Assembly: GCF_024502345.1 (NCBI RefSeq)
Contig: NZ_JALDNN010000003.1
Source of the DNA: Escherichia coli
Lineage (GTDB): Bacteria > Pseudomonadota > Gammaproteobacteria > Enterobacterales > Enterobacteriaceae
Length of the DNA: 64,000 nucleotides
Strand: one strand, 5' to 3'
In this document: one piece after another, positions 6,001 to 24,000 of the stretch
How positions within the stretch are numbered: position 1 is the first letter of the stretch
Layout: every line of letters begins with the position of its first letter
Position numbers: made by a program

Positions 6001-9000
6001 ACTCTAATAACTAAAAATGGCACCCGGAAAATAGAATGAATTTATTTTAAGCTTGCCGAACATGGCTGGCGGCGGAATTAAATTTGGGTAATGACTCCAA
6101 CTTATTGATAGTGTTTTATGTTCAGATAATGCCCGATGACTTTGTCATGCTGCTCCACCGATTTTGAGAACGACAGCGACTTCCGTCCCAGCCGTGCCAG
6201 GTGCTGCCTCAGATTCAGGTTATGCCGCTCAATTCGCTGCGTATATCGCTTGCTGATTACGTGCAGCTTTCCCTTCAGGCGGGATTCATACAGCGGCCAG
6301 CCATCCGTCATCCATATCACCACGTCAAAGGGTGACAGCAGGCTCATAAGACGCCCCAGCGTCGCCATAGTGCGTTCACCGAATACGTGCGCAACAACCG
6401 TCTTCCGGAGCCTGTCATACGCGTAAAACAGCCAGCGCTGGCGCGATTTAGCCCCGACGTATCCCCACTGTTCGTCCATTTCCGCGCAGACGATGACGTC
6501 ACTGCCCGGCTGTATGCGCGAGGTTACCGACTGCGGCCTGAGTTTTTTAAATGGCGGAAAATCGTGTTGAGGCCAACGCCCATAATGCGGGCGGTTGCCC
6601 GGCATCCAACGCCATTCATGGCCATATCAATGATTTTCTGGTGCGTACCGGGTTGAGAAGCGGTGTAAGTGAACTGCAGTTGCCATGTTTTACGGCAGTG
6701 AGAGCAGAGATAGCGCTGATGTCCGGCAGTGCTTTTGCCGTTACGCACCACCCCGTCAGTAGCTGAACAGGAGGGACAGCTGATAGAAACAGAAGCCACT
6801 GGAGCACCTCAAAAACACCATCATACACTAAATCAGTAAGTTGGCAGCATCACCGAAAATAAAATAGAGAGAGTTTTCAATCCGCATGACTTTAAAAAAG
6901 ACAATTTTTAGAAATAAGCCGGATAAAAAAATAGCTTTATCCGGCACTCATATTACAACCAGTTCTTCCGCTTAAAGTACAGATACGGTGCCAGGCCCGC
7001 GAGGATCATAAAGATAATCGCGGCAGGGTAGCCGAAGCTCCACTTCAGTTCTGGCATAAACTCAAAGTTCATGCCATAGCTGGAAGCAACGAGCGTCGGC
7101 GGCAGGAATACCACGGATACCACCGAGAAGATTTTGATGATGCGGTTCTGCTCGATGTTGATAAAACCCATTGCCGCCTGCATCAGGAAGTTCACCTTCT
7201 GGAACAGGGATTCGTTATGCGGCAGCAGGGATTCGATATCTCGCAGGATTTCACGCGCCTGCTCCAGTTGCCCACCCGGTAAACGCGCTTTACGCACCAG
7301 GAAGTTGAGCGCGCGCTGGGTATCCATCAGACACAGGCGAACTTTCCAGCCGATATCTTCCAGTTCCGCCAGCGTGGAGAGCGCCTCGTCGTACTCATCG
7401 CCCTGATGCCCTTCCATAATCACCCGGCTCAACTGCTCCAGGTCGCTATAGATATTTTCAATTTCATCTGCCAACTGTTCGATTTTGGTTTCGAACAGAT
7501 CCAGCAGCAACTCGTAGGCGTTACCGTCTACCATCGACTGGCTACGGGCACGCATACGATACAGACGAAAAGCGGGCAGTTCACGCTCACGCAGAGTAAA
7601 CAGACGACCATCACGGATGGTAAATGCCACAGTGGAGTTACCGGCGTGATCTTCCGCATCTTCAAAGAAGAAGAAGGAGTGAATATGCAGGCCGTCGTCG
7701 TCTTCAAAGAAACGTGCCGATGCTTCGATGTCTTCCAGTTCCGGGCGGGTTGCCAGGCTCTGGCCAAGTTCAGATTGTAAGCGCAGTCGCTCGTCGTCGT
7801 CCGGTTCGACAAGATCAATCCATACTGCATTTACAAGGGGTTGTGACTCTTCGACTTCCAGCCGGGTCAGTCGGTTATTTTCCAGTTGAAATGCGCTCAG
7901 CATGACCGGGACTCCCAATGCTTAAAATATCGGACAGTTCGGTGGGCACACAGAAACAAATTGGGTTTCAGACCATTAAACAGCCTGACTCAGCGCGACG
8001 GGAAAAATTGAGGTCGCTGACAACCGCTAAGGCTATCAGCAAAAAGGGATAGCCTTAGGAGTTGATCCTGGATGACAGGATAGTGAGCCAGTATCTACTG
8101 GGTGTGTCCAAGGCGAATGTCCTCTTAGAGTGATCGTGCGCGCATGTTACGCCAGCAAAATTTTGCCGTCAACACGCAACAGAACACCACAGAACAATAG
8201 TTGAACTTCGCGCTTTTTGGTACTCGTCAAGGTCGCTAACAGGATAAAAAAATCCCACATCCAGGACCTATAATGGCGCATCAGCTACTCATTGGTAAAG
8301 GAATGATCACCTTGAATCTCAAACGGATTTTTCTCGCCCTCACCTTACTTCCCTTGTTTGCTGTTGCCGCTGATGATTGCGCACTCTCAGATCCGACGCT
8401 GACCGTACAGGCGTATACCGTTAATCCTCAAACAGAGCGGGTGAAAATGTACTGGCAAAAAGCCAATGGCGAAGCGTGGGGAACGTTACATGCTCTGCTG
8501 GCGGATATTAATAGTCAGGGTCAGGTGCAGATGGCGATGAACGGCGGCATCTTAAATTTGACGGTTTTTGATATAAAATATAGAAAGAAGGAGGTTTTCT
8601 GAATACCTCCTTCACTGGCGCTCAGTTCGAGAATACGTTAACGCTGTACCGTTTACCGAGCACCTCGGCAGTGGTATCGACAATTTTCTGAATATCATCG
8701 GCAATCGCGGGTTTACTGAATGCGACGGTGTGCAGTTCACCAGCCTGTTCCGCCGTCGCACCATCATGAAAGCGGCTGGCATCGTAAAGCTGGACCCGGA
8801 GTGTCCGGGTATAATCGACATGGCCCATTATTCCTCTCCTGTTCAGTCAGGCGCTATACGCGTTAATAATCACTTTCTTCCGGTTGCGGCTGGGTGACAA
8901 ACTGGTACTTCACCCCATTAGGGACGCCAACGGCTTTTGCTACAGATTCACACAGCAGCGACAGGTCATTCAGAGTCATCGGATATTCGATATCGACGGA

Positions 9001-21000: not shown

Positions 21001-24000
21001 CGGTCTGCTCTTACATCCTACCTGGGCAGCAGCTGGCTACGGTGATCGGGTATTAAAATAGAACCGGTCTGTTTTACCGCAGATTCAACGCCCCGCACCT
21101 AGCGTAAAATCGCCTTTCCCGGATGCCCTCCTTAGTCGTCCGGCACGATGGCGCTACTCCCAGCGATAAGGGGTAAAATAGTCCTCGTTAACAGCAAGAA
21201 ATTCGGTCAGGGAATGCATCGCCTTCGTGTCATATGCCGTCACAATAAAACGGTATCCGTCCACCGTTTCGATGTAGCTGATCCCCCGTGGCGTGCAACT
21301 GGATTTCACAACTTCCGCCGTCATCATAAACTGCCCTTGCGGGAATTCCGGTGACAGGTAGATAAAGCCAGTGGTGGCTGATGACGGGTTGGCATTCATC
21401 AGCACGCTGTTAAATTGCTTTCCGTGCCGCGCCGGAATCAACGCGCTCCCCGCTGTCGCCTGAGTCATCAACTGGCGGATCAGGGTTTCCTCTTTATCTG
21501 AGCTGTAGGCGCGAACATCATTTTCAGCCCCGGAGCGTGAGTAGACGCCGACATGAGCAAGACGTCGGTACTCGTTACGCATATAGGCATGACAGGATGC
21601 ACCGGCTCGCCCCTGAAGAGTGACGCCAAAGTCTTCACATAACATCAGTACCTGGCGCAGGTTTTTGTCATAGACCGTGGCAGAGAGCGCCAGGTTATAG
21701 CTGATGAATGTCAGCTCAAAAACCCGGGTATGTGCGTCACTAAGGTGTGCCTCCATGCGGATCACTGGTTTCTCCGTCATTGGAAACGGCGTACCGGCCA
21801 AGCAGTACGAGGTAACATCGCTAAAACACTCGTCGATCACACTGGCAATGACCGTATCGGCGTCAATGACAGCCGGAGCTGGAACATAAATCTGAAACTG
21901 TCCTTCAGTGCCCGGTTGGATCAGGACGGGGTATAGACGCGGGGAATTGAGTTGTTCGCAGTCGGCATTGATCAGTTCTGTCCAACCGGGTTTTCCGGTG
22001 GGAGCATCAAGGCGAAGACCCAGGTTATCGCAGAAGTCGACGATCTGGCGGGAGTGCTCCACCATCACTGCCCCGGAGAGTGTCAGACCGTGCGTAACCA
22101 TCTGCATCTCACTCGTCCGGGTCTGGGAGTTCTGGGACCAGGGCTGTAATGAAAGCGTCGTCCGACTTAAGGAGGGAATGATGGTTTCATTCAGAGGTTC
22201 AATAAGCTGGCAATGCGCATACAGCCGGGTGGCGAGGAAGTCAAATATGAAGCTTGCCTGTTGTTTTGTGCTGGCCTGAATATAAAACATCGCATCCATG
22301 CCTGAATCCCGGGATGAAATACCGGGTGATGCTGCCAACTTACTGATTTAGTGTATGATGGTGTTTTTGAGGTGCTCCAGTGGCTTCTGTTTCTATCAGC
22401 TGTCCCTCCTGTTCAGCTACTGACGGGGTGGTGCGTAACGGCAAAAGCACCGCCGGACATCAGCGCTATCTCTGCTCTCACTGCCGTAAAACATGGCAAC
22501 TGCAGTTCACTTACACCGCTTCTCAACCCGGTACGCACCAGAAAATCATTGATATGGCCATGAATGGCGTTGGATGCCGGGCAACAGCCCGCATTATGGG
22601 CGTTGGCCTCAACACGATTTTACGTCACTTAAAAAACTCAGGCCGCAGTCGGTAACCTCGCGCATACAGCCGGGCAGTGACGTCATCGTCTGCGCGGAAA
22701 TGGACGAACAGTGGGGATACGTCGGGGCTAAATCGCGCCAGCGCTGGCTGTTTTACGCGTATGACAGGCTCCGGAAGACGGTTGTTGCGCACGTATTCGG
22801 TGAACGCACTATGGCGACGCTGGGGCGTCTTATGAGCCTGCTGTCACCCTTTGACGTGGTGATATGGATGACGGATGGCTGGCCGCTGTATGAATCCCGC
22901 CTGAAGGGAAAGCTGCACGTAATCAGCAAGCGATATACGCAGCGAATTGAGCGGCATAACCTGAATCTGAGGCAGCACCTGGCACGGCTGGGACGGAAGT
23001 CGCTGTCGTTCTCAAAATCGGTGGAGCTGCATGACAAAGTCATCGGGCATTATCTGAACATAAAACACTATCAATAAGTTGGAGTCATTACCGAAATACC
23101 GAAAAGTTTCATTTTTTACCTTAATGGATGAGCGATTTATAATCATGCGCCGACAGGTGGACGTTATGTACGCCATCGTTCCACTCAAAGAATAGCCGAT
23201 ATTTTGAATTAACTCGAATGGAAGAATACCGGTTTGCGGTCATTCTTAAGCGTTCGTACCGCAAACTACCAGATAACAATTCGCGTTCGTTTTTAACATT
23301 ATTTAACGTTTCCAGTCTGCATGAAATCGCATTAATCAGTTCAGCAGGAATGCCTGCCGTGGATTTTCCATTACGGAAAAACTTTTCCAATCGCCTGTCT
23401 TTAAATGAATGGATCATATTTTCCTCCGTAACGAAATGAGTTTAAATAAATAAGAATTAAAAAAGCCTAAATCTAATTTATTACATCCCGAGGATTCTGG
23501 CTGCGACCGTCAGTTGTTTATCACTTAATGGAAATTTGCGTGATAACGTCGACTTCAGGCTGTTCAAAAAACTGTTCTCGCCGTCTTGCTGCGTGATGGC
23601 GTCCACCAGTTCTTGGTGGTTCTGACACCAGAGGTTGAACGCGGAAGTCTTTGATTGAACAGCACGTTGACGCTCTGCTGCCTGAGCGGCTGAGATCTTG
23701 CGAGCAGCTTCTGGGTATATGCGATACAGTGCAGTCAGGGTGTAACAGGTACGGGTAGTGACCAGGCTATAGCCAGTGGCATTACAGGCAATACAGCGGC
23801 TCTTATAAAAGTGATTGCGTTCGCCACGTCCATTGCATTTATTGCAAGTAACACGGTAAATATATTCCCCGGTGCCTTTTACTGAATCAATACACTTAAT
23901 CTTAGCGTTATCGATTGCCATTCCGCTACGGTCAAAGTATTTATCCATTTTTGATTCCTCAGGTTTGGTCTGAAGTAATAATGACAGATTGGCCTCGCTG

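Follow-up and report, generated by a model that had tools for sequence, protein, structure and literature searches.

Among IS1-flanked composite transposons, Tn1681 has inverted IS1 copies and carries a heat-stable enterotoxin gene, Tn9 has direct copies, and Tn6062 is a composite of this kind on IncHI1 plasmids. IS1 generates target duplications of 8 or 9 bp (PMC12428005), and IncHI1 plasmids vary in the presence or absence of corA (bioRxiv 10.1101/334409). The 64-kb stretch of E. coli DNA analysed here (the window) has IncHI1 relatives, trh transfer genes included, and evidently belongs to the backbone of a conjugative, resistance-type IncHI1 plasmid in the R27/pHCM1 group. As a whole, it had no full-length, single-piece match in PLSDB or among complete E. 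coli genomes.

Two IS1 isoforms in inverted orientation

A repeat search found one long inverted pair in the window, with 99% complementary arms at 6082-6854 and 22325-23097 that are separated by 15,470 nt (6855-22324). The arms exceed the IS1 copies they contain by 5 bp, owing to a chance match at 4 of 5 positions. The original prediction had described an inverted pair differing by few substitutions, IS1 A on the minus strand and IS1 B on the plus strand; its coordinates proved exact (Table 1), and the substitutions number six (positions 127, 262, 298, 301, 304 and 704; 99.2% identity). End reading gave GGTGATGCTGCC as IRL and GGTAATGACTCC as IRR in both copies, with GGTGATGCTGCCAACTTACTG... 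at one terminus and ...CAATAAGTTGGAGTCATTACC at the other, over the 768 bp typical of IS1. Each copy keeps a predicted 91-aa insA ORF and a predicted 167-aa insB ORF, together with the A6C motif TTAAAAAACTC of the insA/insB' -1 frameshift. Hence, the two copies share the length, terminal repeats, insA/insB' genes, A6C site and 9-bp (or 8-bp) duplication of IS1 (IS1 family, Enterobacteriaceae), with no difference of substance except that they are two isoforms six diagnostic substitutions apart. IS1 A has 127T, 262C, 298C, 301C, 304T and 704A. Because the six differences fall on isoform-diagnostic sites, the two are different natural isoforms, and IS1 B is evidently no copy of IS1 A.

Table 1. 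Positions of the IS1 copies, target duplications and neighbouring genes in the window.
Feature	Position	Strand	Remarks
Left target-duplication copy TTAAATTTG	6078..6086	.	flanks IS1 A-corA unit
IS1 A, full length 768 bp	6087..6854	-	IRR 6087 (outer end), IRL 6854 (adjoins corA)
IS1 A insB	6102-6605	-	
IS1 A insA	6524-6799	-	
E. coli chromosomal DNA, 1,698 bp	6855..8552	-	ends in ...GGCGGCATCT
corA-downstream spacer, 98 bp	start of 6855-8552 segment		
corA	6953-7903	-	CorA Pfam match 5.7e-58; annotation via relatives
ysgD	8055-8111	-	annotation via relatives
yigE 5' part	8273-8552	+	annotation via relatives
Right target-duplication copy TTAAATTTG	8552..8560	.	flanks IS1 A-corA unit
Conserved IncHI1 backbone	8561..22315	- (nearly all genes)	collinear with p30155-1, pHCM1 and pB207_H
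Backbone genes	8561-22315		DUF3085, DUF957, DUF6012, HNH endonuclease, 809-aa PAPS-reductase/DndC-like protein, many hypotheticals (Pfam/NCBIfam)
Body of 393-aa backbone ORF	21154..22324	-	cut by IS1 B after codon 4; first 11 nt left at 23102-23112
Left target-duplication copy GAAATACCG of IS1 B	22316..22324	.	9-bp overlap of two backbone alignments
IS1 B, full length 768 bp	22325..23092	+	IRL 22325 (inner end), IRR 23092 (outer end)
IS1 B insA	22380-22655	+	
IS1 B insB	22574-23077	+	
Right target-duplication copy GAAATACCG of IS1 B	23093..23101		
HigB-like (RelE/ParE family) toxin gene	23121..23417	-	Pfam PF05015, 3.3e-16

The IS1 A-corA unit and its probable parent composite

According to the original prediction, a target duplication is present at IS1 B alone. 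The 9 bp abutting IS1 A on either side (TTAAATTTG and GAAAATAAA) are indeed unlike each other, but a second TTAAATTTG was found past the corA segment, such that the duplication brackets IS1 A plus 1.7 kb and not IS1 A alone. The claim therefore holds for the immediate flanks of IS1 A and fails for the 2,466-bp (2.47-kb) one-IS1 unit at 6087-8552 as a whole. Base 8552 (T) is ambiguous, since it could just as well belong to native yigE; the repeat would then shorten to the 8-bp TAAATTTG. In p30155-1, where the site is empty, ...GGCGGAATTAAATTTGACGG... occurs once. Window positions 6953-8552 are 99.8% identical to K-12 corA-ysgD-yigE, and native K-12 yigE runs on as ...CATCT ATGATGAA AGC beyond the segment end. 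In base composition, neither the corA segment nor the 15.5-kb interval between the IS1 copies stands out in the window.

Several E. coli chromosomes and plasmids have this 1,698-bp stretch, followed by ATGATGAA, between inverted IS1 copies, as a complete 3,242-bp element with the order IS1-corA-ysgD-yigE'-IS1. Its frequency can be gauged from the yigE'::IS1 junction, which occurs in 174 of 5,426 complete E. coli genomes (~3%). In p4FM-mcr1, a 9-bp duplication (CACCACCTC) brackets the composite, and in pSD134209-1 the complete element occupies the identical IncHI1 9-bp target, with TTAAATTTG on both sides. With two IS1 copies, intact outer ends, a foreign (E. coli chromosomal) passenger and duplications at two independent sites, the 3,242-bp element is a true member of the Tn1681 type, and the IS1 A-corA unit is in all likelihood its one-IS1 remnant. 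A literature search found no paper describing an IS1-corA composite or its mechanism; this small, widespread composite is apparently unnamed. In pS164 and 0H24, one IS1 at the corA site is joined to unrelated DNA, indicating further rearrangements. A solo IS1 at this site had been suspected from relatives with 88–89% coverage, and the one that was checked, p886Rt, has the empty site.

In PLSDB, the yigE'/backbone junction of the window recurs in 14 plasmids including pHCM1, and another 27 plasmids including R27 carry the corA remnant in the opposite orientation, inverted relative to the window. The IS1-corA-ysgD-yigE' unit of pHCM1 agrees with that of the window in content, site and orientation. 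The pHCM1-type relatives have the same IS1 A copy with an internal deletion of 33 bp and an Arg (AGG) at CorA position 289, whereas the window has a full-length IS1 A, Ser289 and the extra IS1 B.

The change at position 289 is an observation in its own right. In IncHI1-borne CorA, Ser289 has become Arg through three different codons, namely AGG in pHCM1-type plasmids, AGA in R27 and CGC in S. Typhi plasmids and pSD134209-1. The AGC codon for Ser289 is kept in chromosomal copies, in composites elsewhere and in the window corA.

The ends of the lost IS1 segment speak against the remnant reading. The loss of the yigE'-side IS1 has boundaries of 8 bp + IS1 + 1 bp, or 777 bp (IS1 plus one duplication length), and these are alike in both orientations, so that at least two independent identical deletions would be needed. 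Microhomology at the deletion joins amounts to 1–2 nt, which is awkward for random deletion. Alternatively, the unit might itself be a mobile one-IS1 element, with IRR at one end and a surrogate yigE end at the other, that entered an IS1 hot spot independently in either orientation, making 8-bp duplications. This would explain the identical unit ends without repeated identical deletions. The reverse complement of the surrogate end (AGATGCCGCC...) matches IRL positions 4–12 at 8 of 9 bases, and each orientation admits a reading with clean 8-bp duplications, the two being shifted by 1 bp (TAAATTTG in the window, TTAAATTT in R27). However, a whole-segment scan found many better IRL or IRR matches elsewhere in the 1.7-kb segment, making the surrogate end a poor one. 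All 41 one-IS1 corA copies in PLSDB sit at the same IncHI1 locus and none at other sites. A metagenome scan for the unit at other sites (...GGCGGCATCT followed by a non-A base) returned 43 hits, all of them unrelated GC-rich chance matches. Moreover, since pSD134209-1 has the complete composite at precisely this 9-bp target, decay in situ requires fewer assumptions than a single site being hit three times independently. We therefore regard a mobile one-IS1 element as quite unlikely.

For a remnant that decayed in place, the 777-bp loss may have happened separately in at least two R27-orientation lineages. The intermediate predicted for the window, with the composite still complete here and corA in the window's direction, was absent from PLSDB, where the best match reached 86% and none was full length. 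Flanking SNPs between the two corA orientations (0–2 in 1.5 kb) are too few to decide whether both derive from one shared ancestral insertion. Inversion of the unit via the palindrome AAATTT in the middle of the target repeat was also considered and rejected, as the predicted junctions mismatch those of R27 and the window. As a tentative reading, possible though not one we favour, the same-boundary IS1 losses might reflect transposase-driven, position-defined excision, and the three-codon Ser289Arg change might imply that the periplasmic loop of the additional CorA has repeatedly come under selection. The window would then be the sole pHCM1-orientation plasmid sampled in the ancestral state, given its full-length IS1 A and retained Ser289.

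IS1 B and the intervening backbone

IS1 B carries a direct 9-bp GAAATACCG on both sides, and its site is empty in relatives. An IS1 at this site was absent from 72,556 PLSDB plasmids and 5,426 complete E. coli genomes, the best match being the empty site in both sets. In E. coli CFSAN061761, the corA composite has two IS1 copies that each match IS1 B at 100% identity. Based on these data, IS1 B is probably a simple insertion private to the window plasmid and, as far as the order of events can be inferred, a recent one. It cuts a 393-aa ORF that has no Pfam or NCBIfam match. The native N-terminus, MKLFGISSRD, is replaced in the window by (TTG)LAASPGISSRD, reading out of IS1. In the uninterrupted backbone, the HigB-like toxin gene ends 8 bp upstream of this ORF.

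The original prediction had the pair enclosing corA plus accessory genes, which does not fit the alignments. Window positions 8542-22324 correspond to 5071-18850 of the IS-free plasmid p30155-1 at 99.8% identity. Together, 4000-6086, 8542-22324 and 23093-25500 map to a single unbroken stretch of that plasmid, and the overlaps at the joins are the target duplications. Since an IS-free relative is collinear across the interval, 13.8 of the 15.5 kb are ordinary native backbone (8561-22315) and not cargo, the remaining 1.7 kb being the corA segment.

This colinearity bears on two further explanations of the pair. In the first, intramolecular replicative transposition of IS1 A gave rise to IS1 B, leaving an inverted copy and an inverted interval; the copies are indeed inverted and on the same molecule. 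Such an event predicts an interval inverted with respect to IS-free plasmids, but the interval is collinear. It also predicts target copies that are inverted and lie on different IS copies, but IS1 B has its direct duplication on both sides. The six isoform-diagnostic differences, and the exact identity of IS1 B with IS1 copies of another genome, likewise argue against it, and we consider this origin extremely improbable. The direct duplication of IS1 B and the colinearity further indicate that the present orientation of the interval is ancestral.

In the second, IS1 A, the 15.5 kb and IS1 B were acquired or moved as one 17-kb composite. Both IS1 copies are intact and IRR is outermost at both 6087 and 23092, the same end layout as in the genuine corA composite. 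However, the outer flanks differ (TTAAATTTG on the left, GAAATACCG on the right), which implies that the 17-kb structure never inserted as a unit. Its passenger from 8561 to 22315 is native and collinear with IS-free relatives, each IS1 event leaving its own duplication in that map, and no other record in PLSDB or the complete E. coli genomes has an IS1 at the B site. With increasing length, moreover, IS1-flanked transposons transpose at steeply falling frequency. Colinearity and non-matching flanks thus refute the 17-kb unit as a past event, and it has next to no probability. Unlike composites of the Tn1681, Tn9 and Tn6062 type, it lacks a common duplication, has native backbone inside and is seen nowhere else; the two IS1 copies are most plausibly a fortuitous pair and no transposon with a history.

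History and potential of the pair

Two separate IS1-related events very probably made the inverted pair, and inversion or mobilisation of the interval is a generic potential. The coordinates, both duplications, the IS-free colinearity, the intact 3,242-bp element on the same target and the absence of IS1 B elsewhere support this reading directly; we infer the order of the two events and the manner in which the second IS1 was lost. In an old event common to pHCM1-type plasmids, the 3,242-bp composite, assembled around DNA of the E. coli chromosome, would have inserted at TTAAATTTG. The yigE'-side IS1 would later have disappeared along with 9 bp of flank (777 bp in total), leaving IS1 A and 1,698 bp, still between the target repeats. 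In a recent, private event, IS1 B, a different isoform, would have inserted 13.8 kb away, duplicating GAAATACCG and cutting the 393-aa ORF. The separate insertions, with their TTAAATTTG and GAAATACCG duplications, bear out the expectation of at least two events behind the pair.

The proposal of a potentially invertible or transposable composite stands as a potential and falls as the history of a unit, given the mismatched flanks and the collinear backbone. Being inverted, intact and 99.2% identical, the copies make a RecA-dependent flip of 6855-22324 physically possible. In principle, homologous recombination between them could turn the interval round, or the two outer IRR ends could serve for transposition of the pair, with no dedicated invertase or recombination site involved. 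The IS10/Tn10-associated inversion in pHCM1 likewise had inverted IS copies as a RecA-dependent substrate; the window differs in that its orientation is ancestral and inversion is a possibility only. An active inversion switch, with a plasmid population holding both orientations of 6855-22324 at appreciable frequency, would draw on 768 bp of inverted homology at 99.2% identity. Among IncHI1 plasmids, both orientations of the small corA segment have become fixed at this locus, and IS-mediated inversions have been documented in such plasmids (bioRxiv 10.1101/334409). Against this, the window has one orientation alone, IS1 B is unique to its plasmid, and there is no recombinase or regulated feature beyond what any two inverted IS copies share; a switch is thus rather unlikely. 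The absence of a related plasmid with the segment inverted had been named as evidence against inversion, and none was found in PLSDB or the complete E. coli genomes, where relatives without IS1 B cannot show the isomer.

The inverted pair itself matters little, since any two inverted IS copies can flip the DNA between them and IS rearrangement of IncHI1 plasmids is already known. In the corrected picture, the interval is backbone and not cargo, and IS1 B, probably inserted recently and private to this plasmid, splits a gene beside a HigB-like toxin gene. Of wider relevance, the corA composite appears to have brought a magnesium/cobalt channel gene from the chromosome to plasmids, the typhoid plasmids R27 and pHCM1 among them, and the repeated Ser289Arg change offers a cheap, testable lead on why IncHI1 plasmids retain a second corA.

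The two IS1 copies and the interval between them

A repeat search found a single long inverted pair in the window, with arms at 6082-6854 and 22325-23097 that are 99% complementary and lie 15,470 nt apart. These arms contain IS1 A and IS1 B (see table). Both are ordinary IS1 elements of 768 bp in which insA (91 aa), insB (167 aa) and the A6C frameshift motif are present. The original prediction of an inverted pair with few substitutions was confirmed at exactly the positions it gave, and six positions differ between the copies. IS1 B has GAAATACCG on either side (22316-22324 and 23093-23101). 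The further claim, that only IS1 B has a target duplication, holds for the immediate neighbours, as the 9 bp to the left and right of IS1 A are unlike, but not for the larger unit: TTAAATTTG stands before IS1 A (6078-6086) and again at 8552-8560, directly after ...GGCGGCATC, and so brackets IS1 A together with the corA segment.

IncHI1 plasmids match the region at 99.8% identity, and the IncHI transfer genes trhC and trhB lie in the right part of the window. By alignment, the window is colinear with the IS-free IncHI1 plasmid p30155-1 (L002), which lacks the 2.47 kb found in the window between the first two blocks: IS1 A plus corA, ysgD and the 5' part of yigE. Given this colinearity, 13.8 of the 15.5 kb of the interval (6855-22324) belong to the native backbone and have kept its orientation. 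The third block joins with a 9-bp overlap, which is the IS1 B duplication; IS1 B therefore entered the backbone by simple insertion. Backbone genes of the interval encode hypothetical proteins, DUF3085, DUF957 and DUF6012 proteins, an HNH endonuclease and an 809-aa DndC/PAPS-reductase-like protein. The last matched models of DndC-type DNA phosphorothioation sulfurtransferases well below their cut-offs (NCBIfam DndC-type model: 8.4e-33, 114 bits, cut-off 290), and no dnd partners were noticed near its gene. Elsewhere in the window, in the part matching IncHI1 plasmids with trh transfer genes, there is a non-coding tandem array of ~35 copies of a 52-54-bp unit with higher-order periods of 266 and 320 bp, crossed by no long ORF.

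Coordinates of features in the window and in related plasmids
Feature	Location	Strand	Remarks
IS1 A	6087-6854	minus	IRR GGTAATGACTCC at 6087; reverse complement of IRL GGTGATGCTGCC ending at 6854
IS1 B	22325-23092	plus	ends read in sequence
Colinear block 1	4000-6086		p30155-1 locus 3001-5087
Colinear block 2	8542-22324		p30155-1 locus 5071-18850
Colinear block 3	23093-25500		p30155-1 locus 18842-21249
corA unit	6087-8552		R27 (L008) 2736-5201
CorA codon 289	7037-7039	minus	differs among copies (L007, L008, L013, L019, others)
809-aa protein	15922-18351	minus
Interrupted 393-aa ORF with HigB-like toxin gene	within 21154-22338 and 23102-23417
Tandem array	59604-59850 and 60652-62488
Composite, p4FM-mcr1 (L011)	1988-5229		9-bp duplication CACCACCTC
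Composite, pSD134209-1 (L013, CP029690.1)	2449-5690		same IncHI1 target as window, TTAAATTTG both sides
Further composites	L003, L004, L009, L010, L012
IS1 at TTAAATTTG site, pS164-CMY-227k (L015)	2106-2873		inner side fused to unrelated DNA
IS1 at TTAAATTTG site, E. coli 0H24 plasmid (L016)	3502-4269		inner side fused to unrelated DNA

An IS1 at the B site was absent from PLSDB (72,556 plasmids) and from 5,426 complete E. coli genomes. The best matches in both collections were the empty site at 51% coverage, and no record reached the ~75% expected for IS1 plus one flank and likewise for the inversion isomer; a related plasmid with the segment inverted, as envisaged in the original prediction, was therefore found in neither collection. 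The six differences between IS1 A and IS1 B fall at sites separating natural IS1 isoforms, and the exact sequence of IS1 B recurs in the IS1 copies of another genome; hence, IS1 B was not newly copied from IS1 A. Intramolecular replicative transposition as the source of IS1 B was excluded, since that mechanism would leave the interval inverted and the duplication divided. IS1 B interrupts, after codon 4, a 393-aa ORF whose start lies 8 bp past the end of a HigB-like toxin gene, and in the window the reading frame extends into IS1 as far as a TTG codon. This ORF could be the partner of the toxin; if it is an antitoxin, its expression must now rely either on IS1 B or on a start inside the ORF.

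As a pair, the two copies could recombine homologously and so invert 6855-22324, and in formal terms they bound a 17-kb composite whose outer ends are both IRR, so that the proposed inversion and mobilisation stand as generic potential only. Of the three features that define a composite transposon, the pair lacks two, with no common duplication, only 1.7 kb of foreign cargo and no second site. The suggestion of at least two separate events was borne out: two independent events are supported, together with this generic potential and nothing more, and the pair is a new case of a known type, private to this plasmid.

An IS1-corA composite transposon

The 1,698 bp at 6855-8552 are E. coli chromosomal DNA, of which 6953-8552 is 99.8% identical to K-12 corA-ysgD-yigE; native yigE runs on ...CATCT ATGATGAA AGC. 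The same 1,698 bp, together with the next eight native bases (ATGATGAA), lie between two inverted IS1 copies in many chromosomes and plasmids of E. coli, forming a 3,242-bp composite, IS1-corA-ysgD-yigE'-IS1. Its yigE'::IS1 junction was present in 174 of the 5,426 complete E. coli genomes, and the composite also occurs in several Salmonella and Enterobacter plasmids. Duplications of 9 bp flank it at two independent sites, and the one in p4FM-mcr1 indicates that the composite transposes as a unit. It has the usual make-up of an IS1 composite whose copies are inverted, as in Tn1681; no description or name for it was found in the searchable literature. The presence of corA in some IncHI1 plasmids and its absence from others have been reported previously (bioRxiv 10.1101/334409).

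Origin of IS1 A

The empty target site reads ...GGCGGAATTAAATTTGACGG... and is found in most of the ~220 PLSDB records holding this backbone stretch. A form with one IS1 occurs in the window's orientation in 14 records, including pHCM1, and in the opposite orientation in 27 (R27, pP-stx-12, ~20 S. Typhi plasmids and one ETEC plasmid), while one record has the complete composite and a few are rearranged at an IS1. The corA unit occupies the same site in the window as in R27 and L006, reversed. Removing G + IS1 + TTCATCAT from the pSD134209-1 arrangement gives the R27 form, and removing ATGATGAA + IS1 + T from the flipped isomer of that arrangement gives the window form. Both losses amount to 777 bp with identical boundaries (8 bp + IS1 + 1 bp).

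As the composite is intact at the same target in pSD134209-1 and the window form is its flipped isomer less 777 bp, we read IS1 A, on sequence comparison, as the putative surviving IS1 of the corA composite. The window's orientation would have come about either when the inverted IS1 copies recombined and flipped the composite's centre or by an independent insertion; no complete composite in this orientation was found at the site in PLSDB. Because the loss boundaries are the same both ways and show only 1-2 nt of microhomology, we argue for a position-defined process by which the second IS1 would have been lost. A surrogate end is a weak alternative explanation of the corA unit's boundaries; a metagenome scan found no corA unit at other sites. 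In two IncHI1-derived plasmids (L015 and L016) one IS1 is joined to unrelated DNA, showing that IS1 copies at the corA locus served as break or fusion points.

CorA codon 289 and the orientation of the corA unit

Codon 289 of corA is AGC (Ser) in chromosomes, in composites elsewhere and in the window, AGG (Arg) in pHCM1-type plasmids, AGA (Arg) in R27 and the ETEC plasmid, and CGC (Arg) in the S. Typhi 311189 plasmid and pSD134209-1. The codons point to at least two Ser289Arg changes, and possibly to three, that arose independently in IncHI1-borne CorA, that is, to parallel change. Residue 289 lies in the periplasmic loop, three positions past the MPEL motif, and CorA studies have tied this region to ion selectivity (PMC3629940). 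All pHCM1-orientation relatives examined (pHCM1, L007; L001; L017; L018) have a 33-bp internal deletion in IS1 A (735 bp), compared with which the window's copy is intact over 6460-6483. With a full-length IS1 A and Ser289, the window seems closest to the ancestral state among the sampled plasmids of its orientation, provided that gene conversion has not restored it. At this locus both orientations of the corA segment have become fixed in IncHI1 plasmids, which shows that flips can occur and persist, on the 1.7-kb scale.
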